In this document: piece after piece, positions 15,737 through 47,013 of the stretch | Layout of the letters: each line of letters begins with the position of its first letter | How positions within the stretch are numbered: the stretch's first letter is position 1 | Program-made: the position numbers and the translations under genes | Notes under the pieces: generated by a model | The model's input: the letters and a program-made list of their open reading frames with translations, nothing else | Told to the model about the DNA's origin: nothing | The model's database searches: none | Virus record (IMG/VR): IMGVR_UViG_3300032722_000006 | Span: 64,001-128,000 of that record | Source of the DNA: a virus | Direction: 5' to 3' (one strand) | Length of the DNA stretch: 64,000 bases

Positions 15737-15742
15737 GTTCAA

Positions 15743-16191: not shown

Positions 16192-16193
16192 TG

Positions 16194-16277: not shown

Positions 16278-16301
16278 ATGTCCCGTACGTGGGACCGACG
16301 T

Positions 16302-16529: not shown

Positions 16530-16533
16530 TTGT

Positions 16534-16899: not shown

Positions 16900-16959
16900 G
16901 GTTTCCTCCGCTTTTCAAAGATCGTACTACGACACCGGCATCCGAGGATGTTGATGTTG

Positions 16960-17031
16960 TGATCCCAGTCGGGTTCGAACCGACGTCCTCCACCGTGTCA
17001 GGGTGGCGCGCTACCGCTGTGCCATGGGATC
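16960..17031 (-). tRNA. tRNA-Val(GAC)
   Basis: Loop CT-GAC-AC. Confidence 0.9.
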
Positions 17032-17094
17032 GTAAAGGAGCATGCGAGTGCATGGTGCCTGCTCCTCTAAGTAGGAAGTTCGTCCGTCAGTGCG

Positions 17095-17433
17095 TCACTT
17101 TCCCGGACGTTTCTGCTGAGAACGCTCTCGGCGCTCCTTCGCGCGCATTCGCTTCTCGGGCTCAGCAGACGCGACGGGCGCGGTCGGTGCTCCTACAGCC
17201 TCGACCACCTTCTTCGCGTCCTCAATCTTCGCAAGGATGCGAGCTCGCTGCTTCGCAGCACCGACGCCCTTTCCCAATCGAGAATCGAGCGCATCCAGCT
17301 GTGCCTGAGGCGACAAGCCCGTCCAGTGCTTCAGACGCTCGGTGCCCTCTTCCTGCTGGATCTTCCTGTGGTCGGGTCGGGGTCCACCACCTGTGAACCT
17401 GCGATCAGTGTTCGTCCTCTTTGCTTGTCCCAT
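17095..17433 (-). CDS. basic hypothetical phage protein
   Basis: LSPQAQLDALDSRLGKGVGAAKQRARI. Start at MGQAK. Confidence 0.65.
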   Translation of the reverse strand: MGQAKRTNTDRRFTGGGPRPDHRKIQQEEGTERLKHWTGLSPQAQLDALDSRLGKGVGAAKQRARILAKIEDAKKVVEAVGAPTAPVASAEPEKRMRAKERRERSQQKRPGK

Positions 17434-17488
17434 CGTCTTCACCTGGTCCTTTCGTTCCATCAGACACACGGTGACCATCACCGTGCAG

Positions 17489-17563
17489 CACCCTCGGCAG
17501 GATTCGAACCTGCGTTACTACAGCTTAGAAGGCTGCGGCCTAATCCGTTCGAGCCACGAGGGC
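17489..17563 (-). tRNA. tRNA-Arg(UCU)
   Basis: Loop CT-TCT-AA. Confidence 0.9.
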
Positions 17564-17567
17564 ATTG

Positions 17568-17641
17568 TCTTCACGGCAGGATTCGAACCCGCGACCTCTC
17601 GCTTCGGAGGCGAGTGTTCTGTTCCGCTGAACTACATGAAG
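17568..17641 (-). tRNA. tRNA-Arg(CCG)
   Basis: Loop CT-CCG-AA. Confidence 0.9.
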
Positions 17642-17645
17642 ATTG

Positions 17646-17720
17646 TCTCCTCGGAGGGATTCGAACCCCCGACACCCGGTTTAGGAAACCGGAGTTCTAT
17701 CCTGGCTGAACTACGAGGAG
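17646..17720 (-). tRNA. tRNA-Arg(CCU)
   Basis: Loop TT-CCT-AA. Confidence 0.9.
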
Positions 17721-17813
17721 ATGAGAAAGCACTTTCACCTGCCGCCGATCCCTACGTGAGACAGCTCACGATCCGTGAACGGGACAAATTATGCTGCGGT
17801 TACTCATGCTATG

Positions 17814-17896
17814 TGCCAACGGAGGGAGTTGCACCCTCACGCTCTTTCGAACGGCGGATTCTGAGTCCGCTGTGACTGCTGTTCCACCACGTTGGC
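17814..17896 (-). tRNA. tRNA-Leu(CAG)
   Basis: Loop CT-CAG-AA, V arm. Confidence 0.9.
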
Positions 17897-17897
17897 A

Positions 17898-18314
17898 TTA
17901 CGTGACCTTCTTGACCCTGCTGACCCACCACCTTCGAGCGAACCTTGAGACGAGATACGCTTCCGCGAGCCGCTTCGATCGCCACACCCTCTGTGCAAGA
18001 GCGCTGGGTGAGTACGATGACGTGACAGTGTATCCTTTCCTGAGACCGTATGCGATCGCTTCAGAATACAAGGCGAGTCCCAATCCTTTTCCTCTGTGCC
18101 CCTGATCGAGGTTTGAGTGCGTCTCGTACACCCTGACGGGATGACCCGCACAGTTTGCTGATGCTTCGACTACATTGACACTTCCGATCTCCTTGCCGTT
18201 GAACTTTAGCTTCACGGTGTAGTCAGTGAAGTTTTCCTTAGGAGTGACGCTGATTGCGTATCCGGCCGGCAGCTGCATGAGACCAACATACCACGTCGGT
18301 CTACGGATTTGCAC
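17898..18314 (-). CDS. GNAT-family acetyltransferase
   Basis: Acetyl-CoA motif HRGKGLGLALY, then S..A..VW. Confidence 0.7.
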   Translation of the reverse strand: MQIRRPTWYVGLMQLPAGYAISVTPKENFTDYTVKLKFNGKEIGSVNVVEASANCAGHPVRVYETHSNLDQGHRGKGLGLALYSEAIAYGLRKGYTVTSSYSPSALAQRVWRSKRLAEAYLVSRFARRWWVSRVKKVT

Positions 18315-18786
18315 TCTCTTCTTCGCTCCGACATTCCTCCCTAATTTCCATTAGAAGTCGCCCGAGCCAGTTCTGACCTACACCTTTGTAAACGCCCCAG
18401 AACTTGTCACCCCACGTGTTACCCTCGACCAACGGGATATCTTCTGTCGCAAGTAACATTGACCTAAGAAGGGGGTTCTTGAATTTTTCCTGCAGCAGAT
18501 TCCGCATCACTGTCACCTTCTGTAGGTCCCAGTCAGTGGGTAGCTTGACAGAGTAACCGAGCTTTTTTGCAATGCCCGGTGACGCTGCTTCGCGGATCAT
18601 CTTCTTCGTCACCGGGTCGGATGACTTCGCCGCCTGGTACGCATGCTCCACTGTTGGGTAACGATCACCGTCGACCCAAATTGATGCTGCGTAGAAATTG
18701 CTCAAGAACCCAAACTCACCTCTGAAGTGATCGATTTCTACGGGTTTCTCTGACGGAAGCTGCGGTTGGCGTGTTTCGTCGCTCAT
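18301..18786 (-). CDS. NADAR family protein
   Basis: FLSNFY, YPTVEHAYQAAK, KF..PLLR..LL.T, LVEGN.WGD.FWG, G.NWLG.LLM. Confidence 0.9.
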   Translation of the reverse strand: MSDETRQPQLPSEKPVEIDHFRGEFGFLSNFYAASIWVDGDRYPTVEHAYQAAKSSDPVTKKMIREAASPGIAKKLGYSVKLPTDWDLQKVTVMRNLLQEKFKNPLLRSMLLATEDIPLVEGNTWGDKFWGVYKGVGQNWLGRLLMEIREECRSEEESANP

Positions 18787-19322
18787 CTGCTTCTTGTGAC
18801 CTCTTCGCAAACGCTGACGTCATCTTCTTCATCGAGTTCCGTCGCCATGAGCGCCTGGATCCTCGAACCGTCGCCCCAATGGATCTTGGCAACGTTGTCA
18901 GTCGCGTTGTGACAGTGACCGTGTGTGTAAGCAGTCAGAAGGTTGCTGTTCTTCATGCCTGCCTTCTGGCAGGCGGCAATGCTTTCGTCGAGATGGTGCA
19001 ATGCGACGGCGGCTTGCTTCGAGACGTCAGGTGAACACAAAGCTGCTTTTTCTTGATCGTTGAACGGGTGGACCTGGAATGCGCCGAGTGCCTCGCCATG
19101 ATCGCCTCTGACCTTGCATGAAACTACATCATCACGCCACCCACCGGTTTCCCATCGAGCGATCTTGATCAAGGTCTCGACCTTCTGAGGATCTGTCGTC
19201 GTTTGCACGATCGCATCGACGACATTTGTCATCGTGTGAAAATCGTAAGGACCCCAGTTAGAATTCCACGTGCTGTCTGTCAGGTTCATTGCGAAGATGA
19301 GGGCTGCCGTGGCTAGATTCAT
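18783..19322 (-). CDS. lysozyme/transglycosylase-like protein
   Basis: IARWETG...GDHGEALGAFQV. Confidence 0.55.
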   Translation of the reverse strand: MNLATAALIFAMNLTDSTWNSNWGPYDFHTMTNVVDAIVQTTTDPQKVETLIKIARWETGGWRDDVVSCKVRGDHGEALGAFQVHPFNDQEKAALCSPDVSKQAAVALHHLDESIAACQKAGMKNSNLLTAYTHGHCHNATDNVAKIHWGDGSRIQALMATELDEEDDVSVCEEVTRSR

Positions 19323-19427
19323 TCTTGTGTAGACTCCATGATGCCGGCGAGATAGGTGCCGACACCCCGTCATTATACTTCACCTGTAAAAAATGTTTCA
19401 CTGCCATGTGTTCATGATGAATAATTG

Positions 19428-19501
19428 TCTCCTCGGTGGGATTCGAACCCACGACCTCCGGCTTCGCAGACCGGTGCTCTAATCCGCTGAGCTACGGGGA
19501 G
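19428..19501 (-). tRNA. tRNA-Arg(GCG)
   Basis: Stem CCGGT/GCCGG, loop CT-GCG-AA. Confidence 0.88.
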
Positions 19502-19970
19502 ATGATGTTATGAGCCTCCACGGGATATTCGCCTTGACGACGCGGTCTAGCATGTCTGCTGTTCCGCGACTGTCCTGGACGTTATTGTGAAATGCTACGC
19601 AAACATCGATGGGCTCTTCTGCCTTGTGTTCTTTGTCAAGCATCTGCTGGTTTCTGATGGGACCCGCAGCGTTCTTGAACTGAATCCAATCAGCAGGATA
19701 CGCTCTGACCTCAAAGTCCAACGCTTCTGCAACTGCAGCACAGATGATGTCCGCACCCTTGCATGCACCGTGAACTAGGATTGTGCCGGGCCTGTAGCCC
19801 TTCAGAACCTCAACGACTGAGGTGATGTCTGACCACTCCCTGTCACCGGTGACGAGAATTTTCTTGATGATCGTCTCGGAAGGTATGGTTCGACGCTCCT
19901 CATCGTCACGACGCTCGTGATAACGACGTTCGACTTTCTCACGACGAATTTTGCCTGTTCTTTGTTTCAT
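19479..19970 (-). CDS. SLOG/YspA-like (DUF2493) protein
   Basis: ILVTGDR, LVHGACKGAD, AAGPIRNQQML, SRGTADM. Confidence 0.85.
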   Translation of the reverse strand: MKQRTGKIRREKVERRYHERRDDEERRTIPSETIIKKILVTGDREWSDITSVVEVLKGYRPGTILVHGACKGADIICAAVAEALDFEVRAYPADWIQFKNAAGPIRNQQMLDKEHKAEEPIDVCVAFHNNVQDSRGTADMLDRVVKANIPWRLITSSPRSSAD

Positions 19971-20047
19971 GGTCTCCCTGGAGGGATTCGAACCCCCGAC
20001 CTTCACGTTCGTAGCGTGCTGCTCTGTCCGGGCTGAGCTACAAGGAG
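19970..20047 (-). tRNA. tRNA-Arg(ACG)
   Basis: Loop CT-ACG-AA, encoded CCA. Confidence 0.9.
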
Positions 20048-20054
20048 ATGATTT

Positions 20055-20261
20055 TCAACGAATGTCGAGTTCAGAAAGTTTGACACAACTAACGTCGCCG
20101 TCGGAGTGGTACCACCCGTCTTCTGACCATTCAACGATGACGTATTCTGGGCCTTTCTTCGAAAGGGCGATGATCGTGCAACCACCGACCTGTTTAGGTC
20201 CACAGCACAAATCACGTAGGAATGCATGTTGACCGATGAGCGTCTTTTTCTTGCCTAACAT
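20055..20261 (-). CDS. hypothetical protein
   Basis: Leaderless promoter places the start at MLGKK. Confidence 0.55.
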   Translation of the reverse strand: MLGKKKTLIGQHAFLRDLCCGPKQVGGCTIIALSKKGPEYVIVEWSEDGWYHSDGDVSCVKLSELDIR

Positions 20262-20304
20262 GTGACGATCGTACATCATCAGACAGATGAATTACACTCT
20301 TGCG

Positions 20305-20335
20305 TCCTGGTGATGGGATTCGGACCCACTACCAT
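20305..20335 (-). pseudogene. orphan tRNA 3' fragment (T arm + acceptor strand)
   Basis: GTGGG-TCCGAAT-CCCAT-CACCAGG-A with no 5' half. Abuts the HNH gene. Confidence 0.6.
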
Positions 20336-20365
20336 TTACGTGACACGTGTTGTATATTCGTATAC

Positions 20366-20926
20366 ATGAACACTTGCCTAGAATGTCACACAGATACGTA
20401 TAACGCTATGTTTTGTTCACGAAAATGTGCGGTTACGTTCAATAATCGTGGTGTTCAACACAACAAGGTCAAACCAAGAAATTGCGCAAAGTGCGGTGAC
20501 GTTTATTTCAACGTTTGCGGTCGACGTTCTCGCCTCTGCGTGAAATGCAGAGAAGAATTTGATAACAGAAGCGATGAGATTGACAATCGAACGTTGCGTT
20601 TCTATTGGGATAAGACAGGGCAAATAAGCTCTCCTGCAACGTTTCACGAGGTACGACATCACGCCAACAGGCGAAACAAACACCGTCTTCAAGCATGTCA
20701 ACGATGTGGTTATTCAAAACACATCGAGTATGCACACATCAAACCCATAATCAGCTTTGATCTTGATACACCGATCAAGATCGTCAACGCTGAATCGAAC
20801 ATTCTGCTCTTGTGTCCAAATTGTCATTGGGAATTTGATAATGGACATCTAAAACTTGTGCCGGGAATGGGACTCGAACCCACGCATGTCACTGCTTATG
20901 AAACAGCCGCTCTGCCTCTGAGCTAA
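20366..20926 (+). CDS. HNH endonuclease
   Basis: Cys-pair N-terminus, CQRCGY...AHIKPI...N...LCPNCHWEFD. Confidence 0.85.
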   Translation: MNTCLECHTDTYNAMFCSRKCAVTFNNRGVQHNKVKPRNCAKCGDVYFNVCGRRSRLCVKCREEFDNRSDEIDNRTLRFYWDKTGQISSPATFHEVRHHANRRNKHRLQACQRCGYSKHIEYAHIKPIISFDLDTPIKIVNAESNILLLCPNCHWEFDNGHLKLVPGMGLEPTHVTAYETAALPLS

Positions 20927-20932
20927 CCCGGC
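20859..20932 (-). tRNA. tRNA with CAU anticodon (elongator Met or Ile2)
   Basis: Loop TT-CAT-AA. Confidence 0.85.
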
Positions 20933-21039
20933 ATGATGGGACGTAACCACCACGCCCCCACCACATTCTCGCTTTCACCTTCAACGTTGGTGTACGTTTT
21001 CCGCATATTCAATTTGCGAATCAGACGGTTACTCGCTCG

Positions 21040-21122
21040 TACACCCAGAGGGACTCGAACCCCCACGCCCTTTCGGGCACTGCAGCCTAAGTGCAGCACG
21101 TCTACCATTCCGCCATGAGTGC
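21040..21122 (-). tRNA. tRNA-Leu(UAG)
   Basis: Loop CT-TAG-GC, V arm. Confidence 0.9.
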
Positions 21123-21217
21123 ATGCAGGGGATTCTATGAACCCCTGTCAATGACGCGATCATCCGTTGTCATTAACTAGCGACGATCATTGTCGATGAT
21201 GACGATCGTCGTTATTG

Positions 21218-21290
21218 TGCCCCCGGAAGGAATTGCACCTTCGACATCCGGTTTCGAAGACCGGCGTTCTTTCTGCTGAACTACGGGGGC
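21218..21290 (-). tRNA. tRNA-Arg(UCG)
   Basis: Loop CT-TCG-AA. Confidence 0.9.
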
Positions 21291-21291
21291 G

Positions 21292-21639
21292 TGGGTGGTA
21301 CGTAAGCGGGATTTTGTCTAGGATGATCATTCCTCTGTGATGTGTGTCACCACACATCTATAGCAACAACCCGCATGCTCGGGCGAACAGCCCTCAAACG
21401 CACACTGTTTGTCTTGCTCCGGGAGGGACCCCTTACCGTCTGCATTGCTGCATTCGTGGTGGGCTCTTACTCCACCGTTTCACCATCACCTGATCCTCTT
21501 TTGTGAGGCCATCGGCTGTCTTTTCTCTGTTGAGTCTTCCGTCACCTTGCGATGCCCAGTCGTTAGCTGGTTCCCTGTTCTATGGAGTCCCGACTTTCCT
21601 CTGCGCGTATAGTACGCAGCGATCATCTTTCTCCACCCC
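21292..21639 (-). ncRNA. rnpB: RNase P RNA (bacterial type A-like)
   Basis: GAGGAAAGTCGGGAC and ACAAAATCCCGCTTA P4 halves, ACAGAGAA, GGTGAAACGGTGGAGTAAGAGCCCACC, GGAGCAAG, terminal P1 pairing, about 350 nt. Confidence 0.93.
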
Positions 21640-21641
21640 TG

Positions 21642-21724
21642 TGCCATCGGAGGGAATTGCACCCTCACACCCTCGCGGGCGCCGGAGTTTGAAACCGGTG
21701 TGTCTGCTGTTTCACCACGATGGC
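21642..21724 (-). tRNA. tRNA-Leu(CAA)
   Basis: Stem CCGGT/TCCGG, loop TT-CAA-AC. Confidence 0.85.
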
Positions 21725-21818
21725 ATTACTTTTTCGTTTAGATTCTGAAATTTGTTTTCGAGTTTCAATTGTATGTTTTCTTCCTCGAAATCTGTGTGTT
21801 CCGGTGATAGAGTGACAA

Positions 21819-22325
21819 TTAGGACACAAATATTCGAGGCTTGCCCGATCCCACCCATGCGTTGATTTTCACTTTTTCCCATTGTTCTGGTGGACTACCG
21901 TTCTTGCCTAGCTGCAGGATGTTCATTGTCCTGTGCCAACCTTCGTACAATTCGTACCCGTCCACCCTCTTGATCACGATGATCGGTTCGTTCTTTCCTG
22001 TTGAGACCGCGAGTTCCTTGTGCCTTGCCATTCGTTCTTCGTCATTGTGAACTTCGTATGGATTTATCGCACCAAATTGTCTCTCGAGGATGCGCCTGCG
22101 TGTGTCTGGAGCGAAGTCACTCAAGTTGACTATGATGACCTGTTGATGCCAATTGAGGCGATCGAATGCCTTGTACAGGGGATGTTCACCCATCCCAGTC
22201 CTATAGAAATCGTGTAGTACGTATTCAGGGATGTTTGGGTACTTCCTGCGAAGTTCCTTGTAGAGACCTTTCCATCTCATCTCAATGATCAGGCTGATCG
22301 CCTCACGAAGCAACGTCAACGACAT
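21819..22325 (-). CDS. hypothetical protein (ParB-like EGWHR motif) with LRExI leader
   Basis: EPIIV...LYEGWHR. ATAGTTA upstream. Confidence 0.65.
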   Translation of the reverse strand: MSLTLLREAISLIIEMRWKGLYKELRRKYPNIPEYVLHDFYRTGMGEHPLYKAFDRLNWHQQVIIVNLSDFAPDTRRRILERQFGAINPYEVHNDEERMARHKELAVSTGKNEPIIVIKRVDGYELYEGWHRTMNILQLGKNGSPPEQWEKVKINAWVGSGKPRIFVS

Positions 22326-22341
22326 GTCAGTAACTATTCTG

Positions 22342-22425
22342 TGTCATCGAGGGGACTCGAACCCCTACGGCCTTTCGGCCACAAGCACCTCAAGCTTGCG
22401 CGGCTACCAATTACGCCACGATGAC
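22342..22425 (-). tRNA. tRNA-Leu(GAG)
   Basis: Loop TT-GAG-GT. Confidence 0.9.
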
Positions 22426-22505
22426 ATTGGAGGAGGGAATCTGGTCGCCTCCCTCCGAGGGCGTTTTATGCTGATCGTCAGCAATTTCTTGCCTCCCAGG
22501 CCAGG

Positions 22506-22588
22506 TGCTATCGAGGGGAGTTGCACCCCTACGCCCTTTTGGGCACAACGTTCTCACCGTTGCGTGACTGCTGTTCCACCACGATAGC
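22506..22588 (-). tRNA. tRNA-Leu(GAG), second copy
   Basis: Loop GT-GAG-AA. Confidence 0.85.
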
Positions 22589-22600
22589 GTGTGATGTCTG

Positions 22601-22675
22601 TGACCCCAACGGGATTCGAACCCGTGTTCCCTGCTTGAAAGGCAGGTCGCCTAGGCCTCTAGCATTGATGGGGCC
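22601..22675 (-). tRNA. tRNA-Glu(UUC)
   Basis: Loop CT-TTC-AA, lengthened acceptor-D connector. Confidence 0.85.
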
Positions 22676-22802
22676 ATTTTCCACCTGCTACTGCTCAGCT
22701 TTTTTCGGCCTGCCGTAGCTTTCCGGGTGATGGAAACCGTTGATTTGGTGACAATGCGAAGTTCGTTTTCCGTTCAAATTCGGTGTCCTTTCGCATTGTC
22801 GG

Positions 22803-22877
22803 GGTGACTGACGGGATTCGAACCCGCGAATATCCGATTCACAGTCGGACGCCTTAGGCCTCTTGGCTACAGCCACC
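22803..22877 (-). tRNA. tRNA-His(GUG)
   Basis: Loop CT-GTG-AA, G-1:C73. Confidence 0.92.
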
Positions 22878-23025
22878 ATGAAACACTACTTCTTCTTGTT
22901 CTTCTTTTCGAACTGATCCTTGTAGACGTACATTGCAACGACAACGATGACGACGGCTGCAGCAATCTTGAGTTTGTTGTTCATATAGAGAACATACCAC
23001 ACCGGCTGGTGTTAGTACACTCAGG

Positions 23026-23097
23026 AGCTGACGAAGGGATTCGAACCCTCACACGGGACTTTACAGGAGTCCAACCCGACCGTTGGGCGACATCAGC
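23026..23097 (-). tRNA. tRNA-Thr(UGU), C33
   Basis: Stem GGACT/AGTCC, loop CC-TGT-AA. Confidence 0.8.
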
Positions 23098-23107
23098 ACG
23101 TACCTTT

Positions 23108-23180
23108 CACTTTCGCTCAGGACTTGAACCTGATCTTAGGCTTGGACAGCCCCGTGCAACCGTTACACTAGCCTCAAGAG
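23108..23180 (-). pseudogene. degenerate tRNA
   Basis: D arm and T arm (TCAGG-TTCAAGT-CCTGA) present, acceptor poorly paired. Confidence 0.5.
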
Positions 23181-23191
23181 TTACTCAGTCG

Positions 23192-23270
23192 TGGTCCCAG
23201 AGGGATTCGAACCCTCACGCATTCGCAGCGATTTTTAAGATCGCCGTGTCTACCGTTCCACCATGAGACC
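23192..23270 (-). tRNA. tRNA-Leu(UAA)
   Basis: Loop CT-TAA-AA. Confidence 0.9.
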
Positions 23271-23288
23271 AGGTTCATCTCTTTCACC

Positions 23289-23375
23289 TGCATTCGATGG
23301 GACTCGAACCCATAAGCCTCGTCAGAGGCGCCAGCCTTTTTGTCGGCCCGCGTATGCCATTTCCGCCACGAATAT
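23289..23375 (-). pseudogene. Leu-type tRNA with irregular anticodon arm
   Basis: Leu-like D, V and T arms, anticodon region GGCC-GACAAAAA-GGCT. Confidence 0.55.
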
Positions 23376-23394
23376 TGATGGTTACTTGAAACGG

Positions 23395-23467
23395 AGCGGA
23401 TGACGGGATTCGAACCCGTGTGTCCAGAGTGGCGCTCTGGTGCCTGAAACCTCTCGGCCACACCCGC
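23395..23467 (-). tRNA. tRNA-Gly(GCC), G32/C33
   Basis: Loop GC-GCC-AC. Confidence 0.82.
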
Positions 23468-23468
23468 A

Positions 23469-23544
23469 TGGAGCTGACGATGGGACTCGAACCCATGTGT
23501 TCCTCTTTACCGAAGAGGGGCGCCTGCCTCTGCGCTACGTCAGC
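23469..23544 (-). tRNA. tRNA-Thr(GGU), C33
   Basis: Loop TC-GGT-AA, encoded CCA. Confidence 0.85.
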
Positions 23545-23674
23545 GTTGAGTCGAGAGAGGGAGTCGGACCCACATGCCCTTCAGATGCCTACGACATCGT
23601 CCGGGCGGCCCGTGTTGGAACACGTGCTGTGCCTGCCGGTTACACCACTGAGGATCGTGCCTCAGGCCATGCGT

Positions 23675-24418
23675 TTACTGGGTCGGAGTCGAGAGTCGGA
23701 CTTGAACCGACATACAGCTGTTTTGCAGACAGCTCGCTGAATCATTCGCGTACCTCGACGTAAATTGTGCAATTCTTTCTTGAAGTTGATCAATCGTGAT
23801 CAATGATTTTGCATTCTTTCGTTGATTCTCTGTGTGACGAACTAGACGACAATTAGCAGGATGTGCTATCAACGTTGGATCGATCCCGAATTTGAAACCA
23901 TCAGCGATCGAAATCAGGTGATCACGTGACACTCCGTTCAAATTTCCTCCTCTGTTAGAGGCTGAATACCACCCGTATTGTTTAAGCAGATCAAGATCGA
24001 AATGCTCTGGGTAGTCATACACGTTGAACGTAAAGAGGCACAAGTACTTGTAACTCTCGCGTGAACTCCGTTGTTCGGCATGAAATCCCTTGTAGCACTC
24101 TACGTTACAAAATCGATGCTTTTGACGTCCTCGACGGCCGTACACACGATTGGGTTTCCCACACAAGTCACACTTGAAATCATGTCCGGTAAGCGATCTA
24201 CCAACGCCCATACCCTTCCTAGGAGAAGGTCGACCCTTCATTGTTTGTCGCGTTTTTTCCCTTGATTCTGCGCTTTGATGACGATGATGTGATGCGCAAC
24301 TCTGTGTGCAGTGTTTGCGTCTCTTTGGAGATTTGAACTGCTTCTCAGTGAGAAGCAGTTCAAACGAACTACCGCATGGACAGATGAACGCGTATGACTT
24401 ACGTGATACCTGATACAC
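23675..24418 (-). CDS. putative homing endonuclease (Zn-finger/NUMOD-like + HNH-like)
   Basis: CPCG, CDLC, SRDH...HPANC...ENQRK. Reads through tRNA-Cys. Confidence 0.7.
   Translation of the reverse strand: MYQVSRKSYAFICPCGSSFELLLTEKQFKSPKRRKHCTQSCASHHRHQSAESREKTRQTMKGRPSPRKGMGVGRSLTGHDFKCDLCGKPNRVYGRRGRQKHRFCNVECYKGFHAEQRSSRESYKYLCLFTFNVYDYPEHFDLDLLKQYGWYSASNRGGNLNGVSRDHLISIADGFKFGIDPTLIAHPANCRLVRHTENQRKNAKSLITIDQLQERIAQFTSRYANDSASCLQNSCMSVQVRLSTPTQ
23687..23759 (-). tRNA. tRNA-Cys(GCA)
   Basis: Loop CT-GCA-AA, U73. Confidence 0.88.
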
Positions 24419-24448
24419 GTCAAATTGTAATCTGATGTACCAGATTGT

Positions 24449-24958
24449 TCAAGAAAGCGCTTCCCATTCTTGATTGATGTCATCCCATCGCATGATGCGA
24501 TTGAGAAGCGTTATGTTTAGTCCATCAGTACGTTTGTCGTTTGGATCTGCGTACAATGTTGGGGGGTTGTCATCTTCATCAACACGAAATTGCATTGTGT
24601 TCAGAAGCTCTTTGGGAGACATTCGTTGGGGTTGACCACCCAAGCTTCTTAGCATGACGATCCATCTCCTCGCAGCGTTTGGGAACATCATCAGTACCTG
24701 TTCGGGAGTTAGGATTCCTCCGTATGCCGGTGCAGTCGAAACGTTCGGTCCAGCGCTTCTTCCTCGAGGAGCCGGTTCCTTGTATGCATCCATGAACGCC
24801 TCACTGAGGCCTTCGACGTTGATGTCTCCCACACGAGCAGGATCGTCAAGATCTCGATCGTCTGCATCATCACGGCTGTTCGCACCACGTGGCAATCTTG
24901 CATGATCCGCGACCGCCTCACGGATTAGGCGCCTGAGCTGCTTCAAGGAAATCTTCAT
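24449..24958 (-). CDS. hypothetical protein with MKISLKQLRRLIRE leader
   Basis: Shared leader and ATACTTA upstream. Confidence 0.7.
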   Translation of the reverse strand: MKISLKQLRRLIREAVADHARLPRGANSRDDADDRDLDDPARVGDINVEGLSEAFMDAYKEPAPRGRSAGPNVSTAPAYGGILTPEQVLMMFPNAARRWIVMLRSLGGQPQRMSPKELLNTMQFRVDEDDNPPTLYADPNDKRTDGLNITLLNRIMRWDDINQEWEALS

Positions 24959-24975
24959 GTCCTAAGTATTCGTTG

Positions 24976-25047
24976 TCCACACAGTTGGAGTTGAACCAAC
25001 ACCTCCGGGGCTTCACTCCGGCGCGCGACCACCTACGCAATGTGTGG
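24976..25047 (-). tRNA. tRNA-Phe(GAA), divergent
   Basis: Loop GT-GAA-GC. Confidence 0.75.
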
Positions 25048-25051
25048 ATAG

Positions 25052-25124
25052 CGGTGAAGGTCGGAATTGAACCGACGCGACCCTGCTCTTCAGGCAGGTG
25101 CTCTACCAACTGAGCTACTTCACC
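25052..25124 (-). tRNA. tRNA-Phe(GAA)
   Basis: Loop CT-GAA-GA. Confidence 0.9.
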
Positions 25125-25131
25125 ATGTTTC

Positions 25132-25207
25132 TGGAGCTAGCAGTGGGAGTCGAACCCACGTGTTCCTCTTTACGGGAGAGGGGCGCCTGCCTCTGCGCTA
25201 TGCTAGC
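25132..25207 (-). tRNA. tRNA-Thr(CGU), C33
   Basis: Loop CC-CGT-AA, encoded CCA. Confidence 0.85.
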
Positions 25208-25215
25208 ATACGTTG

Positions 25216-25288
25216 TCAGGGTCGTGGGACTCGAACCCACATTCTCTCGCGTCCGAGGCGAGCGGGGCTCCATATCCCCTTCACCCTG
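25216..25288 (-). tRNA. tRNA-Pro(CGG)
   Basis: Loop CT-CGG-AC, C1:G72, A73. Confidence 0.85.
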
Positions 25289-25289
25289 A

Positions 25290-25367
25290 TGGTCGGAATG
25301 GCGGGAGTTGAACCCACGATCTCTCGTCCCCCAGACGAGCGCGATAACCAGGCTTCGCTACATTCCG
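25290..25367 (-). tRNA. tRNA-Pro(GGG)
   Basis: Loop CT-GGG-GG, encoded CCA. Confidence 0.9.
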
Positions 25368-26152
25368 ATGATTGCTTTCGGGAATCTCTTCTTGGCGTAT
25401 TCGAGCCACTCGTACCTCACCTGAACAAGTACGTTACGAATTTCGACTGCATCACAGCCTTTCTTGACCGCCGCCGTAGCGAGTTCATCAAGATGTTCAT
25501 CGATGACCTTGATGAAGGGTCTCCGCGTACGCTTGGCGAGGTGATAAAATCCTGCGACGAACGCTTCTTTTTCTGCGTCAGAGAGCATGTACCTTGCGAA
25601 AGTCCTAGGACTGTTCCATACGCTGTCTGGGATTGACATCAAGTCCTGGCTAGCTTGAATTCCTCCGAGCAATTTTTCGTCCGACTGGACAGAGTGTTCA
25701 AACTCGTGCCTGATGACCTCGTACGATTGTTGCTGGATCATCGAGAGGTGTTGAGGCTTCATGATTCCTGTCGTTGAATCGACAAAAATCTTGATGGAGA
25801 GCAGGTCCTTGATGGGAGACCATCCTCCTGATATTCCGACCTTGTCGACCGGAGCAGGCTTGTTGAGCAAGTAGATCATTAGTTGCACCGTCATCGCAGG
25901 AGGTGCGTTCGGATCGGTTCCCAAGGCCCGTGATCTTTCACGACGACCTTCGGGTGTTCCGAACCAGTCCTGCCTCTTCATGAATGCCGGCCACGACTGC
26001 AGGTACTTCATGTTGATGCCGCCTTGCTTGTTGACCTTGTCCATCACCTTCTTGCATGCACGGATCAATTTCTGCGTCACCATCCTCGTGAACGAGTCGA
26101 TCTTTGATTCTGCAAGAAGCTCAATGACGACCTGTTCGTACAACGTATGCAT
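25358..26152 (-). CDS. HExxH metallopeptidase-like protein
   Basis: VIRHEFEHSVQ...Y.LS..EKEAF. Confidence 0.65.
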   Translation of the reverse strand: MHTLYEQVVIELLAESKIDSFTRMVTQKLIRACKKVMDKVNKQGGINMKYLQSWPAFMKRQDWFGTPEGRRERSRALGTDPNAPPAMTVQLMIYLLNKPAPVDKVGISGGWSPIKDLLSIKIFVDSTTGIMKPQHLSMIQQQSYEVIRHEFEHSVQSDEKLLGGIQASQDLMSIPDSVWNSPRTFARYMLSDAEKEAFVAGFYHLAKRTRRPFIKVIDEHLDELATAAVKKGCDAVEIRNVLVQVRYEWLEYAKKRFPKAIIGM

Positions 26153-26173
26153 GAATGTAACTATTCTCATCTG

Positions 26174-26246
26174 TCGGGGTGGTGGGACTCGAACCCACGG
26201 CAGCCTGCTTGTAAGGCAGGTGATCTAGCCGCTGATCTACACCCCG
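26174..26246 (-). tRNA. tRNA-Val(UAC)
   Basis: Loop CT-TAC-AA. Confidence 0.9.
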
Positions 26247-26252
26247 ATTGTG

Positions 26253-26323
26253 TCAACGCGCCGGGATTCGAACCCGGGTTTCCTGCTTGTGATGCAGGCG
26301 CTCTGCCGTTGAGCTACGCATTG
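26253..26323 (-). tRNA. tRNA-Val(CAC)
   Basis: Loop AT-CAC-AA. Confidence 0.88.
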
Positions 26324-26326
26324 AAA

Positions 26327-26370
26327 GGAACGCAAGTTGTCAATGAACGGGAACGTCATACTGGCGTTCC
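26327..26370 (-). promoter_or_regulatory. hairpin + boxA-like element (copy 1)
   Basis: CGTTCATTGACAACTTGCGTTCC is identical at 46450..46472. Confidence 0.5.
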
Positions 26371-26375
26371 ATCCG

Positions 26376-26449
26376 TCAGCGAGGGGAGATTCGAACTCCC
26401 GAAAACCTGTATCCAAAACAGGTGCCCTAGGCCTCTAGGCGACTCGCTG
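26376..26449 (-). tRNA. tRNA-Pro(UGG)
   Basis: Loop TT-TGG-AT. Confidence 0.9.
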
Positions 26450-26646
26450 GTCTACTTCTGTCTTCCGTCGGGAGTCTCTTCCCGGCTAGCCACTTTCAAC
26501 CCTTTAAGGGGCGTGGCAATCGAAACGGCAGTACGCCTGAGGTATGGGACGTAAGGCAACAGACGCTTCCGCGCCGTTCGCTCTCACTCGTCCTACCTGT
26601 TAGCATACTCGACATCATTTGAATGACTCGTTTCGTAATCTATCTA

Positions 26647-26724
26647 TGGTGATCCCAAGGGGATTCGAACCCCTATTTCTGCGATGAGAACGCAGCTGCC
26701 TAAGCCGTTAGCAATGATGGGACC
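26647..26724 (-). tRNA. tRNA-Glu(CUC)
   Basis: Loop TT-CTC-AT, encoded CCA. Confidence 0.85.
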
Positions 26725-26783
26725 GTCGTGAGTATACATTACCCTCTTCAAGAAGAGGTGTACACGGAAAACGCTTCACACGT

Positions 26784-43230: not shown

Positions 43231-43305
43231 TGGTTGAGGCAGTAGGACTTGCACCTACGTGATCAGGGTCAGAACCTGACATACTCGCTGCTGTATGATG
43301 CCTCA
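43231..43305 (-). tRNA. tRNA-Gln(CUG)
   Basis: Loop TT-CTG-AC, encoded CCA. Confidence 0.88.
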
Positions 43306-43306
43306 G

Positions 43307-43379
43307 TTGAGGTGGAGGGATTCGAACCCCCGTATGTGGCTTCAAAGACCACGGTCCTGGGCCGCTGGACGACACCTCA
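43307..43379 (-). tRNA. tRNA-Gln(UUG)
   Basis: Loop CT-TTG-AA. Confidence 0.9.
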
Positions 43380-43519
43380 ATGGTGATGCTTTTCTTTTAT
43401 CGTGCTACACACTCTTGTGCTGGTTCGACGTCGATAATTTCACTGGGAGAGCATCAACTCGCAATGAAAACAGCTAACGTTATCCACACAAGACACTGCG
43501 TCGATTTGAGCGCAGTTAG

Positions 43520-43591
43520 CAGGGGCACTCGGACTCGAACCGAGGTGATCCGTTTTGGAGACGGACATCCTAGCCGCTAAATGATACCCCT
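43520..43591 (-). tRNA. tRNA-Trp(CCA)
   Basis: Loop CT-CCA-AA, G73. Confidence 0.92.
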
Positions 43592-43630
43592 GTGAAACAC
43601 GCATGTTCTGCCGATTGAGCTACATTCACG
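43592..43630 (-). pseudogene. orphan tRNA 5' fragment (D arm)
   Basis: GAATG-TAGCTCAATCGGCAGAAC with no 3' half. Confidence 0.45.
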
Positions 43631-43693
43631 TTCCCTGCCACTGTCGAGGGATTGTGAAGACGACGTAGATAAACCGTAAAACATTGCGTGTAG

Positions 43694-43764
43694 CGGACAC
43701 GACGGGATTCGAACCCGCATGCGTTCCCTAGACAGGGGAATGGCCTCCAGTGGCCCACGTATCC
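43694..43764 (-). tRNA. tRNA-Asp(GUC)
   Basis: Loop CT-GTC-TA (pyrimidine at 37), G73. Confidence 0.85.
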
Positions 43765-43776
43765 ATTTCGTATCAG

Positions 43777-43907
43777 TGCCGACTCCTGGTGTTGAGCCAG
43801 GCCAATCCTCCTGTGACCGCTTCACATCACTGATTCGCAATGATTCGAGATCTCGGTGTGAATGCCGGCTGATGTAGCCGGTGGGTTTCGTCGCTCCCTC
43901 AATCGGC
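43777..43907 (-). ncRNA. tRNA-like RNA, CAU loop, ~60-nt variable domain
   Basis: Acceptor GCCGATT/AGTCGGC-A, CCGGC-TACATCA-GCCGG, CCTGG-CTCAACA-CCAGG. Confidence 0.6.
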
Positions 43908-43983
43908 GTAAGATGCTGCTGACTCCCGGGAGGCGAACGCCTCCACTCGAGAGGCGTGAATTCGTCTCTCTAGGACTCAGCGG

Positions 43984-44056
43984 TGGAATTGAAGGGATTC
44001 GAACCCTCTACCTCCTGCATGCCGTGCAGGCGCTCTCCCAATTGAGCTACAATCCC
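43984..44056 (-). tRNA. tRNA-Ala(GGC), C33
   Basis: G3:U70, loop AC-GGC-AT. Confidence 0.88.
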
Positions 44057-44057
44057 G

Positions 44058-44134
44058 TGGACCCGGAGGGAGTCGAACCCTCAATCACGTAGGTTCCATT
44101 GTCGGCTTTCCTATGTGACTCGCCTTTCAGGCCC
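44058..44134 (-). ncRNA. tmRNA-TLD-like small RNA (alanine acceptor, no anticodon arm or message region)
   Basis: GGGCCTG/CGGGTCC-A with G3:U70, stemless D loop AAAGGCGAG, long helix, canonical T arm. Confidence 0.65.
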
Positions 44135-44178
44135 TTTTACGCCGAGTGAAACACAACCGCACTGTGCCATGGCGTTAG

Positions 44179-44251
44179 TGGAACTCACGGGATTCGAACC
44201 CGTCGCCTCCTGCGTGCAAAGCAGGCGCTCTCCCAAATGAGCTAGAGTCCC
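44179..44251 (-). tRNA. tRNA-Ala(UGC)
   Basis: G3:U70, loop TT-TGC-AC. Confidence 0.92.
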
Positions 44252-44286
44252 AAAAGAGGCAGATTGACCGCTGCCTTCCTGGTATC

Positions 44287-45042
44287 TTACTGTAAGCCTG
44301 CCTGTTGCGTGATCGTCTGAATCGCCGCTGTTCCCCTGACATTGGACATCCCAAGGTCGATGAGTACAAGCGTGCCGTCGTCTCTTTTCATCATGTTGCC
44401 GGCATGGTAGTCGTGAAAGTCAATGCCAAGTTCCGTGAGAGTCTCGAACAATCCCTTCACACCGTACTTCTTGACTAGGAGGCTCCACTGTTCGTTTGCG
44501 TGTGCGATGAACTTCTGCGCTTCAGGTGAGGTGAAAGACTTGAACTTCTTCTTTGCAGTTTCCTTGATGTGTTCCTTCGTGAGTTCCTTGACCTTGTCCC
44601 AGGAGCCTCCTGCACGTTTGACCCAAAGCGGAAATGCTGTCGTCACAAGTGCGTCATTAAACGATTTGCCTTCTTCTGCGCTGATAGTTTGCAACTTTTC
44701 TTGCAGGATCGCGAATGTACCCGTGTCGCCTAGGCTCCATACGCCGTAAAAATTCACAACTCCGCTGACGTTCTTTCCCACGAGGATTGATGCTGCGTGC
44801 GCTTCTTTGCCGTCGTTCGTGACCTTGAGAACCTTGTCGCCTACCTCGAAAACTGTACCCCGCGTGCCCGTACCGATCGGTTGTAATGAATCAACGTCCT
44901 TGATTCCTAGTTTCGCCGCACCTTTCGGAAAGCGTTTGAGAAGTTCTTTCGCCTCATCGGGCGTCACGGGCTTGTTTTCCTTCGCCTCGAAAATGAGTGC
45001 CTCACGCACGAGTCGACGAAGACGTCCTAGCTTGATTCTCAT
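44287..45042 (-). CDS. protein-kinase-like fold enzyme with LRRLVRE leader
   Basis: IGTGTRGTVF, VLKVT, DYHAGN, LIDLG. Confidence 0.8.
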   Translation of the reverse strand: MRIKLGRLRRLVREALIFEAKENKPVTPDEAKELLKRFPKGAAKLGIKDVDSLQPIGTGTRGTVFEVGDKVLKVTNDGKEAHAASILVGKNVSGVVNFYGVWSLGDTGTFAILQEKLQTISAEEGKSFNDALVTTAFPLWVKRAGGSWDKVKELTKEHIKETAKKKFKSFTSPEAQKFIAHANEQWSLLVKKYGVKGLFETLTELGIDFHDYHAGNMMKRDDGTLVLIDLGMSNVRGTAAIQTITQQAGLQ

Positions 45043-45063
45043 TGCTGTAAGTATGCCCTTCTT

Positions 45064-45140
45064 TGGAAGCGGAGGTCGGATTTGAACCGACGACTTCGAG
45101 GTTATGGGCCTCGCGAGCTACCTGGCTGCTCTACTCCGCA
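45064..45140 (-). tRNA. initiator-type tRNA-fMet(CAU), C33
   Basis: 1:72 mismatch, TAGAGCAGCCAGGTAGCTCG D arm, loop CC-CAT-AA. Confidence 0.85.
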
Positions 45141-45141
45141 G

Positions 45142-45214
45142 TGAATCCAGAGGGAGTTGAACCCTCAACCCTCGGGGTAAAAGCCCGCTGCGCTGCCAAT
45201 TGCGCCATGGATTC
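45142..45214 (-). tRNA. tRNA-Lys(UUU)
   Basis: Loop CT-TTT-AC. Confidence 0.88.
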
Positions 45215-45215
45215 A

Positions 45216-45593
45216 TTATCGATATTTGCCGGCATATTTCTTCATAGTCTTAGCGCGTTTACTGTTCACCACTTTACCGATATTGCGACCACGATATGTT
45301 GATGTTTGCGCATGGCAATTTGGACAGATGAGTCTGAGATTTTCTTTTGCTTGGTTCTCAGGATTCCCATCAATGTGATCAATTTCGATTGGGATGGGTC
45401 TATTCAACCAAATTGACGTGTTACACACTTCACATTTGTGTCCTCTTTCTTCAAGAAGACATCTTTTCTTAATACGGATGTCGTCTGTTCCTTCGAACGT
45501 CTTGCGATATTTCTCAGGAAAGTGTGCTCGTCGATGACCACCCAACGCCCCGGGAGTTTCAAACTCCTGTAAACATGTCTTACACACATACAT
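45216..45593 (-). CDS. HNH endonuclease with N-terminal C2H2 finger
   Basis: CKTC...GHRRAH, CEVC...IEIDHIDG...ENLRLICPNCHAQT. Confidence 0.85.
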   Translation of the reverse strand: MYVCKTCLQEFETPGALGGHRRAHFPEKYRKTFEGTDDIRIKKRCLLEERGHKCEVCNTSIWLNRPIPIEIDHIDGNPENQAKENLRLICPNCHAQTSTYRGRNIGKVVNSKRAKTMKKYAGKYR

Positions 45594-45616
45594 GCTAGAT
45601 AGTACCCCACCCGTTG

Positions 45617-45686
45617 AGCCCAAGGTTGGAGTTGAACCAGCGACCTCCCAGTGGATACCGGGCGCTCTGCACTGAGCTACGTGGGC
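45617..45686 (-). ncRNA. tRNA-like gene with 6-nt anticodon loop
   Basis: Cloverleaf intact, CCCGG-TATCCA-CTGGG. Confidence 0.6.
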
Positions 45687-45688
45687 AG

Positions 45689-45762
45689 TTGCAAAGGAAG
45701 GGCTTTAACCTCCGACCTCCGGGCCATTACGCCCGGCGCTCTCTCTCCTGAGCTACTTCGCA
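45689..45762 (-). ncRNA. tRNA-like gene with 8-nt anticodon loop
   Basis: CCGGG-CGTAATGG-CCCGG, T loop TTAAAGC. Confidence 0.6.
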
Positions 45763-45763
45763 G

Positions 45764-45836
45764 TGGGAAGGGAACGGATTGAACGTCCGACCTGCGGGCT
45801 AAATGCCCGCTGCTCTTTCTCCTGAGCTACCTCCCC
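45764..45836 (-). ncRNA. tRNA-like gene, UUU with A33
   Basis: GCGGG-CATTTAG-CCCGC. Confidence 0.6.
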
Positions 45837-45914
45837 ATAATCATCGATGATTTCACCTCCGCCGGCAGCTTCAAAGGCTGACAGTGTCGCTTGCGCTGGT
45901 TACTTGATCGACTG

Positions 45915-45989
45915 TGCCTCCGGTGGGATTCGAACCCGCAACTTTCGGTGTAAGAGACCGCTACTCTAATCCAGTTGAGTTACGAAGGC
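45915..45989 (-). tRNA. tRNA-Lys(CUU)
   Basis: Loop CT-CTT-AC. Confidence 0.85.
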
Positions 45990-46123
45990 ATTGCGAGCGT
46001 TTTTGTCGTGGGGCGCTCGCCCACGGGTGAATTCCGCTGTGAGTTTGTTGGGTTCACCATTCCCGGTGCTCACATGCTAATGACGCTGGATGGGCCCGCG
46101 ATTGCAGACACTACCAACGTCGG

Positions 46124-46196
46124 CTGCTCATATGGGAATCGAACCCATCGTCTTCCGCTTAACAGGCGGCCGCTGCACCAAGCCAGCTAATGAGCA
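46124..46196 (-). tRNA. tRNA-Asn(GUU)
   Basis: Loop CT-GTT-AA, G73. Confidence 0.88.
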
Positions 46197-46273
46197 ATGA
46201 AAGTTTTTGGCGGGACCTCAGATCAAACGCTCAGATGAATACCACCCATGTTGCGATTCATCCTCAGTCCCTG

Positions 46274-46346
46274 CTGGCACAGTAGGTTTCGAACCTACAT
46301 CCTCTCGGTTAACAGCCGAGCGCACTGCCAATTGTGCTACATGCCA
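46274..46346 (-). tRNA. tRNA-Asn(GUU), second copy
   Basis: Loop CT-GTT-AA, G73. Confidence 0.9.
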
Positions 46347-46373
46347 ATGAGCCGATACGCTTTCTTGTATCGG

Positions 46374-46445
46374 TGCCCCCGGGGATGGGTTCGGGCCATC
46401 GTCTCCGCCACAAAGAGGCGGGCTCTGCACTGAGCTACCCAGGGA
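46374..46445 (-). ncRNA. aberrant tRNA-like gene (UUU, C33)
   Basis: CCGCC-TCTTTGT-GGCGG, T loop CCCGAAC. Confidence 0.55.
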
Positions 46446-46449
46446 TATC

Positions 46450-46489
46450 GGAACGCAAGTTGTCAATGAACGTGAAGGACTATGCCTTC
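46450..46489 (-). promoter_or_regulatory. hairpin + boxA-like element (copy 2)
   Basis: 23-bp identity with 26327..26349. Confidence 0.5.
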
Positions 46490-46493
46490 GCGG

Positions 46494-46574
46494 TGCAGGG
46501 GGCCGGATTCGAACCGACACAGTACTAAACGGGTGGTTTACAGCCACTTGAGCTCGCCGATGCTCAGCCCCTAC
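46494..46574 (-). tRNA. tRNA-Tyr(GUA)
   Basis: Loop CT-GTA-AA, V arm. Confidence 0.88.
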
Positions 46575-46589
46575 ATGTGTGTTTAAACG

Positions 46590-46621
46590 AAAAAACCGAG
46601 AGAAGATCCTTTCTTCCTCGG
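46590..46621 (-). terminator. intrinsic terminator (attenuator) upstream of the tRNA array
   Basis: CCGAGGAAGA-AAGGA-TCTTCTCTCGG-TTTTTT. Confidence 0.75.
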
Positions 46622-46685
46622 CGTCGAATTGGCTTCTATTCCCAACTCATTCGCTCCGGAAGCTCGGAGCGAGAGTGCGCTCCGT

Positions 46686-46757
46686 TCACGTATCCGTATT
46701 TGCGGCGGCATACTGCCACTGCTTTTGCTGATCCTTGTTATATGTTGAAGTTTTCAT
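46686..46757 (-). CDS. putative leader peptide MKTSTYNKDQQKQWQYAAANTDT
   Basis: 23-codon ORF followed by alternative hairpins and a terminator. Confidence 0.6.
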   Translation of the reverse strand: MKTSTYNKDQQKQWQYAAANTDT

Positions 46758-46831
46758 GACCGTGTGGTGCGTGTTGCTTACTAGTACTCTATCCAAGACC
46801 TGTGCTTTGTTTCACAGTTTTTTCAATTTTG

Positions 46832-46905
46832 TCGGTACGAGTGGAATTGAACCACCGACCTCCTGCTTATCAGGCAGGCGCTCTAGACCCCTGAGCTACG
46901 TACCG
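46832..46905 (-). tRNA. tRNA-Ile(GAU)
   Basis: Loop CT-GAT-AA. Confidence 0.92.
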
Positions 46906-47013
46906 CTGCACTAACAAGAGTAACTATACTGCTGTAGCCCACTCACGTACACTTTTGTTTTGCACTGTGACGTTGGTGGTTCGCGTGTATGTTACATAGT
47001 GATCAGACAACCG

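Follow-up and report, generated by a model that had tools for sequence, protein, structure and literature searches.

Short leader ORFs that list the tRNAs of two phage tRNA arrays: candidates for codon-sensing attenuators

Leader-peptide attenuation is known from E. coli and Salmonella, where trpL, hisL and pheL, the multivalent thrL and ilvGMEDA leaders, and pheM ahead of pheST are examples. T-box riboswitches also bring about antitermination that depends on tRNA charging, but they bind one tRNA directly and need no translation. The leader-peptide attenuator hisL is also covered together with the Salmonella mgtL/mgtA and corL/corA upstream open reading frames (uORFs), which are Rho-dependent, sense Mg2+ (mgtL via Pro codons) and control transporters (PMC12360218). 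A plasmid trn operon of Anabaena PCC 7120 contains a large tRNA array that is normally silent, repressed by TrcR and induced by translational stress (PMC10272220). The purpose of large phage tRNA sets is a long-standing question, and the leading idea is that they replace host tRNAs that are destroyed or depleted in infection (PMC10264068), in particular those depleted by anticodon nucleases (PMC10264068; PMC7824862). Here we analyze a 64,000-nucleotide stretch of the virus record IMGVR_UViG_3300032722_000006 ("the window"), in which each of two tRNA arrays is preceded by an open reading frame (ORF) that is short and made up largely of codons for the tRNAs of that array. This leader system is very probably a codon-sensing regulator of the tRNA arrays.

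The window comprises bases 64001-128000 of the 145,283-base record. Because syntenic relatives are 309-369 kb in length and one of them has terminal repeats, the record probably represents part of the genome of an uncultured jumbo phage. This phage encodes a sigma-70-family protein, an RNase P RNA and some 50 tRNA genes, which lie in two minus-strand arrays. Twelve syntenic phages with the gene order Ile - spacer - Tyr - array were located via the adjoining sigma factor and kinase-like gene. These phages, the window and a distant phage (G005/L162) formed the comparison set for leader 1 (14 peptides). The locus reads as a putative attenuator, with a promoter, a short ORF restricted mostly to the amino acids served by the array (its roster), four segments predicted to adopt two exclusive folds, a terminator and the array:

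46923..46951 (-), promoter-like site (-35/17 nt/-10) upstream of tRNA-Ile, matrix score 14.2
46831..46905 (-), tRNA-Ile(GAT), upstream of leader 1, at an equivalent position in 12 relatives
46786..46814 (-), second promoter-like site, between tRNA-Ile and leader 1 and 29 nt before the ATG, matrix score 21.6 (the window's best)
46686..46757 (-), leader 1 (P0002), 23-codon ORF with the roster Y/N/K/A/D/W/Q, between tRNA-Ile and tRNA-Tyr
46678..46684 (-), segment 1, beginning 2 nt past the leader-1 stop and covered by a ribosome at the stop in the folding model
46665..46671 (-), segment 2, partner of either segment 1 or segment 3, part of a triplet that covaries in 13/13
46652..46662 (-), CUUCC plus segment 3, predicted to supply either the antiterminator 5' strand or, in the 2:3 protector hairpin, the 3' strand and loop; UCCG invariant
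46652-46658 (-), segment 3 proper, contained in the preceding element
46626..46648 (-), inner hairpin, placing segment 3 beside segment 4
46623-46613 (-), segment 4, the 5' arm of the terminator according to folding
46590..46622 (-), terminator hairpin (46622-46595, -14.1 kcal/mol) with a six-U tail (46595-46590)
43231..46574 (-), tRNA array 1: Tyr, Asn x2, Lys CTT/TTT, Met (initiator-like), Ala TGC/GGC, Asp, Trp, Gln TTG/CTG
46460..46471 (-), boxA-like motif, about 20 nt past tRNA-Tyr

A preliminary description of this stretch had pointed out the 23-codon ORF at 46757-46686 (-) and the agreement of its codons with the array. Translation, codon counts and array content were all reproduced. Seventeen of the 22 codons after Met encode Y, N, K, A, D, W or Q, the remainder being four Thr and one Ser, and both Lys codons, both Gln codons, GCC and GCA are included. 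Codons 6-20 are entirely on the roster, and the Thr and Ser codons are confined to both ends. Such an enrichment is what one expects of an attenuator leader: the share of these amino acids in the phage proteome is 31% (binomial p 1.2e-5), mononucleotide shuffles yield a mean of 7.8 roster codons (p 0.0002) and dinucleotide shuffles a mean of 9.2 (p 0.001). The other two reading frames of the region have 4 and 10 roster codons. The ORF also lies where an attenuator ORF should be, between the promoter-like site at 46814 and tRNA-Tyr, presumably on the same transcript.

A spacer ORF (18-26 codons) is present in all 12 syntenic relatives; the distant phage has a leader ORF of 37 codons ahead of a Tyr-led array. 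Conservation of the spacer amounts to only 48% mean column identity. All seven amino acids of array 1 are present in 14/14 leader-1 peptides, with a chance of 1.5% for one random 22-codon string; since the peptides are homologs, this completeness reflects retention and not 14 independent trials. Single-base codon differences between leader-1 copies are distributed 160/31/236 over codon positions 1/2/3, which is a coding signature, and a KQWQ-like core is seen in most copies. Relative L091, which has Tyr and Lys tRNAs only, has a promoter-like site immediately before Tyr and, judged by eye, no evident leader.

The mutually exclusive pairings of segments 1, 2 and 3 (46684-46678, 46671-46665 and 46658-46652), the second hairpin (46648-46626) and the intrinsic terminator, which ends 15 nt ahead of tRNA-Tyr, were likewise present as first described. 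Segment 1 starts at +1 to +5 after the stop codon in 13/13 homologs, and the core of the triplet covaries in five versions (GGAG/CUCC/GGAG, GAAG/CUUC/GAAG, GGGG/CCCC/GGGG, GAGG/CCUC/GAGG and GAGA/UCUC/GAGA). The window spacer folds at a z of -3.25. Full-length equilibrium folding was uninformative, as it gives the terminator in all states; hence transcripts ending at the terminator's 5' arm were folded with the ribosome footprint masked. Folding predicts that a ribosome in the middle of the ORF leaves the 1:2 hairpin formed, while CUUCC (46662-46658) and segment 3 enclose the inner hairpin and pair with the 5' arm of the terminator as the antiterminator. A ribosome that has reached the stop is predicted to allow 2:3 instead, which leaves that arm unpaired. 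The predicted antiterminator probability in the window is 1.00 when segment 1 is free, 0.02 with the ribosome at the stop and 0.96 without any ribosome. When the ribosome is moved along the ORF, the predicted outcome is read-through from codon 1 to codon 21 and termination once codon 22, codon 23 or the stop is reached, and in silico replacement of segment 1 flips the fold. Among the homologs, the probability is 0.98-1.00 in 13/13 with segment 1 free; if a ribosome with a 9-nt footprint is placed at the stop, 11/13 drop below 0.5, and footprints of other lengths give a lower number. Folding and covariation thus both point to exclusive terminator and antiterminator folds that are set by ribosome position. 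The preliminary description had suggested ribosome-mediated attenuation without defining the antiterminator; the folding supports ribosome-mediated attenuation, but not a trp-like logic, as the polarity is inverted. By eye only, the 2:3 loop may form a pseudoknot with a conserved GAAG in leader 1.

New here, beside the antiterminator of leader 1, is a second leader, which precedes array 2 and has complementary amino acids. The head of array 2 mirrors that of array 1, with a promoter-like site, a single tRNA (Glu CTC), a spacer and the array:

26736..26764 (-), promoter-like site at the head of array 2, matrix score 13.2
26647..26724 (-), tRNA-Glu(CTC), upstream of leader 2 in the same layout as tRNA-Ile before leader 1
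26496..26618 (-), leader 2 (P0001), 40-codon ORF with the roster P/V/T/F/C/G/L/H/E/R/S/M and 33 distinct codons
26467..26528 (-), conserved structures of leader 2: a stop-spanning hairpin, a downstream hairpin without U tail, and a possible loop pairing with 26528-26522
13470..26449 (-), tRNA array 2: Pro, Val, Thr, Phe, Cys, Gly, Leu, His, Glu, Arg, Met, Ser, plus the RNase P RNA
26337..26348 (-), boxA-like motif after tRNA-Pro(TGG), identical to the array-1 copy
16923-16912 (-), third boxA-like motif, after a tRNA gene

After its first Met, leader 2 has 36 of 39 codons for P, V, T, F, C, G, L, H, E, R or S, two for Met and one for Lys. This roster equals the specificities of array 2 exactly, including the second Met tRNA. 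If codons are divided into those of the leader-1 roster (A-set) and those of the leader-2 roster (B-set), leader 1 has 17 A-set and 5 B-set codons vs 1 and 36 in leader 2 (Fisher 1.5e-9); pooled over the phages, leader 1 has 248/68 and leader 2 has 9/312. Of 9 relatives, 8 have an intact leader 2, and its frame, start and stop are kept through whole-codon length changes. Its Pro/Arg-rich end is conserved and reminiscent of arrest motifs. In the leader-2 hairpins, 98% of the cells are paired and four pairs show compensatory change, while the loop pairing with the Pro-Phe-Arg-coding segment is kept in 39/40 cells and only one side of it varies. When untranslated, the leader-2 RNA folds into a long covarying rod that buries the start codon. 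In relative L295 (15950-16540), an ORF is inserted between leader 2 and tRNA-Pro. Codon-level diversity is no higher than expected in leader 1 (p 0.51) and exceeds expectation in some copies only of leader 2 (window p 0.0014). For this reason, the match between leader and array is firm at the level of amino acids and weak at the level of isoacceptors.

That codon content should co-vary with array content had been proposed from the window alone. This holds within the genome, as leader 2 demonstrates, and also across phages. In the distant phage G005, array 1 includes Glu CTC and TTC, Ile GAT, Pro TGG and Arg ACG, and array 2 is without a Glu tRNA. Of the 36 codons of its leader 1, three are Glu (0/294 in the other phages, p 0.001) and five are Ile (9/294, p 0.011), and 31/31 core codons are on its own enlarged roster. 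Conversely, its leader 2 has zero Glu vs 12/297 in the others. Among all 14 leaders, CGT/CGC (Arg) codons occur in the core of 4/4 leaders with Arg GCG or ACG in the array and in 0/10 others; L080, the nearest relative of the window, has both the Arg tRNA and an Arg codon, and the window has neither. Where Glu, Ile, Pro and Arg tRNAs are in array 1, leader 1 thus appears to gain those codons.

Promoters were scored with a matrix trained on relatives only, for which shuffled sequences yield 0-1 sites above 13 per strand. The motif upstream of tRNA-Ile recurs in 11/12 relatives. A promoter between the terminator and tRNA-Tyr, which according to the preliminary description would speak against attenuation, was not found in the matrix scan; the top score within array 1 is 11.1 (in the HNH gene), which is below threshold. 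Due to its location upstream of the leader, tRNA-Ile(GAT) is outside leader-1 control. This tRNA and the two promoter-like sites are additions to the preliminary description, as are the degenerate tRNA-like genes and two protein genes of array 1. Promoter-like sites at 19400 and 14149 (-) inside array 2 suggest that the far end of this array may also be transcribed without leader 2.

At the output step, only part of the expected conservation of uORF plus terminator was found: the uORF is conserved, whereas the U-tailed intrinsic terminator is present only in the window and G005, both with six U in the first 8 nt past the hairpin. In the 12 close relatives and leader 2, the U tail is weak or absent. 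Six U-poor relatives have CGUUU in common a few bases further on. Three exact matches to the boxA-like motif are found in the window vs 0.10 expected, and it occurs 20-45 nt past tRNA-Tyr in seven relatives. We take its function to be that known from rrn antitermination, and its presence suggests that the phage borrows rRNA-type antitermination for long non-coding operons. In this genome, the output of array 1 is probably set by intrinsic termination. The ancestral output step may have been factor-dependent, because the U tail is mostly absent in the clade and the first tRNA of each array has a boxA-like motif behind it. At its end (43220-43100, -), array 1 has hairpins but no U-tailed terminator, such terminators being scarce genome-wide, and the transcript may therefore continue toward the sigma factor gene.

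Taken together, leader 1 is likely to belong to a ribosome-coupled transcription attenuator that tests the decoding of the codons served by the downstream array. In this model, a ribosome at the last two codons or the stop would hide segment 1, so that 2:3 pairs, segment 4 stays free and the terminator forms. A ribosome that lags at codons 1-21, or no ribosome at all, would allow 1:2 to form, upon which CUUCC and segment 3 would capture segment 4 and cause read-through. Should charged tRNA for Tyr, Asn, Lys, Ala, Asp, Trp or Gln run short, through cleavage by host nucleases or through starvation, the ribosome would slow and the array would be switched on, and the newly made tRNAs would restore decoding and close the switch. 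Due to this inverted logic, the switch would be blind to which codon stalls, which suits a sensor of many tRNAs. Leader 2 would do the equivalent bookkeeping for the other twelve amino acids ahead of array 2, and the two leaders together would thus cover nearly the whole code.

Several observations weigh against this model. No Shine-Dalgarno site precedes the leader-1 ATG of the window, a point softened by the modest enrichment of AGGA before the genes of this phage in general (22/121). Thr is frequent in leader 1 (27/294) though Thr tRNAs belong to array 2. The switch result varies with the assumed length of the ribosome footprint, and at full-length equilibrium the terminator is favored in both states, by 8.7 and 13.5 kcal/mol; the switch would therefore have to be kinetic and decided during transcription. 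Six relatives with the same hairpin have U counts of just 2, 4, 2, 3, 0 and 3, and six further relatives lack the terminator hairpin, yet retain the 1:2, 2:3 and 3:4 helices. The Arg contrast represents at most 2-3 independent events; the tree needs two Arg changes among close relatives, and one origin is also compatible. Tracking of Val GAC is not significant (5/8 vs 1/6, p 0.12). Leader 2 lacks a U-tailed hairpin, nested folding gives it no clear two-state switch, and in relative L297 (14848-15018) it is out of frame near its end.

In its widest form, the proposal is that these jumbo phages split the genetic code over a pair of tRNA operons and monitor nearly all codon classes through two test genes of complementary content, which are re-edited as tRNA genes move between the operons, and that most of the clade ends transcription without a U-tailed terminator, by an uncharacterised ribosome-gated termination or antitermination. 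We put this forward tentatively, as possible at somewhat less than even chances. A slightly more doubtful version keeps the codon-sensing leader and the 1:2/2:3/3:4 switch, with Rho-dependent termination or a factor-assisted pause in the style of mgtL/corL as the ancestral output and the U tail of the window as a late add-on. The switch is conserved in 13/13 and the U tail is found in 1 of those 13, and the missing U tail of leader 2 also fits this version. Still, a typical Rho site is C-rich, unlike the purine-rich RNA that the "off" state of leader 1 would free, and the hairpin with six U in this genome is a complete intrinsic terminator. As boxA recruits NusB/E and thereby resists Rho (PMC12360218), the boxA-like motifs after the first tRNA of both arrays indicate that Rho may be involved. 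In mgtA/corA, a stall in the uORF leads to a Rho-resistant fold and full translation to termination (PMC12360218). An improbable third explanation moves the switch from transcription to processing or decay: pairing of segment 4 in the 5' leader of tRNA-Tyr would set the access of RNase P or a nuclease. Segment 4 does end within about 15 nt of tRNA-Tyr in four hairpin-less relatives, and the phage has its own RNase P RNA inside array 2. However, the effect of such a switch would fall mainly on the first tRNA, which is at odds with a leader that names all the tRNAs in 3.3 kb of array, and the window has a full terminator.

The leaders could also be nascent-peptide arrest sequences or general sensors of translation stress, in which the peptide motif matters and the match to the array is incidental. 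The KQWQ-like core and the conserved Pro/Arg-rich end of leader 2 would fit this, as does the read-through predicted without a ribosome, which means that any translation block would open the switch. We give this explanation little credence, since the rest of each peptide varies freely yet within its roster, the G005 leader is without the motif but on its own roster in all core codons, and one genome has two leaders of complementary content. The remaining explanation, an ORF arisen by chance in an A-rich spacer ahead of an ordinary terminator, with leader 2 as a non-coding rod-shaped RNA, was already disfavored and is very improbable. Array-1 amino acids mostly have A at the middle codon position and are thus favored by A-rich DNA, and the untranslated leader-2 RNA does form its rod. 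But base-composition shuffles give 8-9 roster codons in 22 and not 17, frame, start and stop are kept in 13 and 8 relatives, length changes are by whole codons, and the substitution pattern is that of coding sequence.

In addition to the tRNAs listed above, array 1 holds four degenerate tRNA-like genes, an HNH gene (45216-45623, -) and a kinase-like gene with a weak ABC1 match (44287-45042, -); the two protein genes would share the control of the array. The tRNA-like genes (46375-46444, 45763-45836, 45688-45762 and 45616-45686, -) have intact stems and abnormal anticodon loops, and are possibly decoys or pseudogenes. Relatives have similar genes at equivalent places, with varying loops. A short RNA between the two Ala tRNAs (44058-44134, -) matches the 3' end of transfer-messenger RNA (tmRNA) and YrlA weakly. 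A long tRNA-like gene at 12570-12661 (-) was called with the anticodon TTA, and relatives L085 and L089 have TTA- and CTA-anticodon calls within array 1. In L088 (5070-5640), an insert of about 500 nt apparently splits tRNA-Tyr in its anticodon loop. The RNase P RNA inside array 2 (21287-21640, -) is of bacterial class A (224 bits). Genes related to translation or conflict are also found in the window at 16534-16899, 18301-18810, 19479-20006 and 56015-57001 (-), encoding a PTH2 peptidyl-tRNA hydrolase, NADAR, SLOG and an HD-domain protein, the last of which also weakly matches the RNA-binding region of poly(A) polymerase. A hairpin near 54999 was dropped as a candidate because no tRNA lies downstream in its direction, and an ATG found at the junction with tRNA-Tyr was set aside, being the usual A-U ahead of a G+1 tRNA.

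A DNA pattern from the start of leader 1 gave 78 matches in viral contigs, none of them a homolog; among the matches listed for the switch pattern in metagenome contigs, none is tRNA-linked; and the pattern of the leader-1 core matched no additional contigs. The phage sigma factor has no close cellular or cultured-phage relative (best about 41% or less), and no relatives were found for the protein at 41633-42022. We found no description of such control of tRNA genes in the literature, in a search whose coverage mostly excluded subscription journals.

If the proposed mechanism is true, a feedback switch that lists its own tRNAs would show that they are produced on demand and would make the replacement idea directly testable, with a reporter of 150 nt. 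Attenuation would then extend from amino-acid enzymes to tRNA supply, in a compact many-tRNA sensor design that could be used as a reporter for anticodon-nuclease defence systems. The leader codons also point to the annotated tRNA genes that the phage treats as functional. The papers on replacement of host tRNAs by phage tRNAs supply the likely purpose of the array; neither mentions a leader or attenuation, nor do they deal with on-demand control (PMC10264068; PMC7824862).

Among known systems, the Anabaena trn operon comes closest in function; its control is by a DNA-binding repressor at the promoter (PMC10272220), whereas the sensor of the phage would be a cis-acting translated leader that fits the codons of its array. 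No T-box or other Rfam match was found over the leader, at the gathering score or at E up to 1. Salmonella mgtL and corL share the polarity of the phage leader, in that a uORF stall leads to a read-through fold and efficient translation to termination; unlike it, they sense Mg2+, control transporters and use Rho (PMC12360218). With trp/his-type leaders, the phage leader has in common a short ORF rich in the sensed codons, alternative hairpins that overlap, a signal presumed to be the supply of charged tRNA and, in the window, an intrinsic terminator before the first gene. In contrast to the single-codon run of that type, it covers seven (leader 1) and twelve (leader 2) specificities with one to five codons each, and its switch has one more helix. 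Segment 1 follows the stop codon, so that in the folding model a ribosome at the stop would lead to termination, and an earlier stall or a lack of translation to read-through. The genes under control are those of tRNAs and not of enzymes that make or charge the sensed amino acid. The phage leader would work like a multivalent attenuator, yet departs from the trp/his type in two defining features, its polarity and the nature of the regulated genes.

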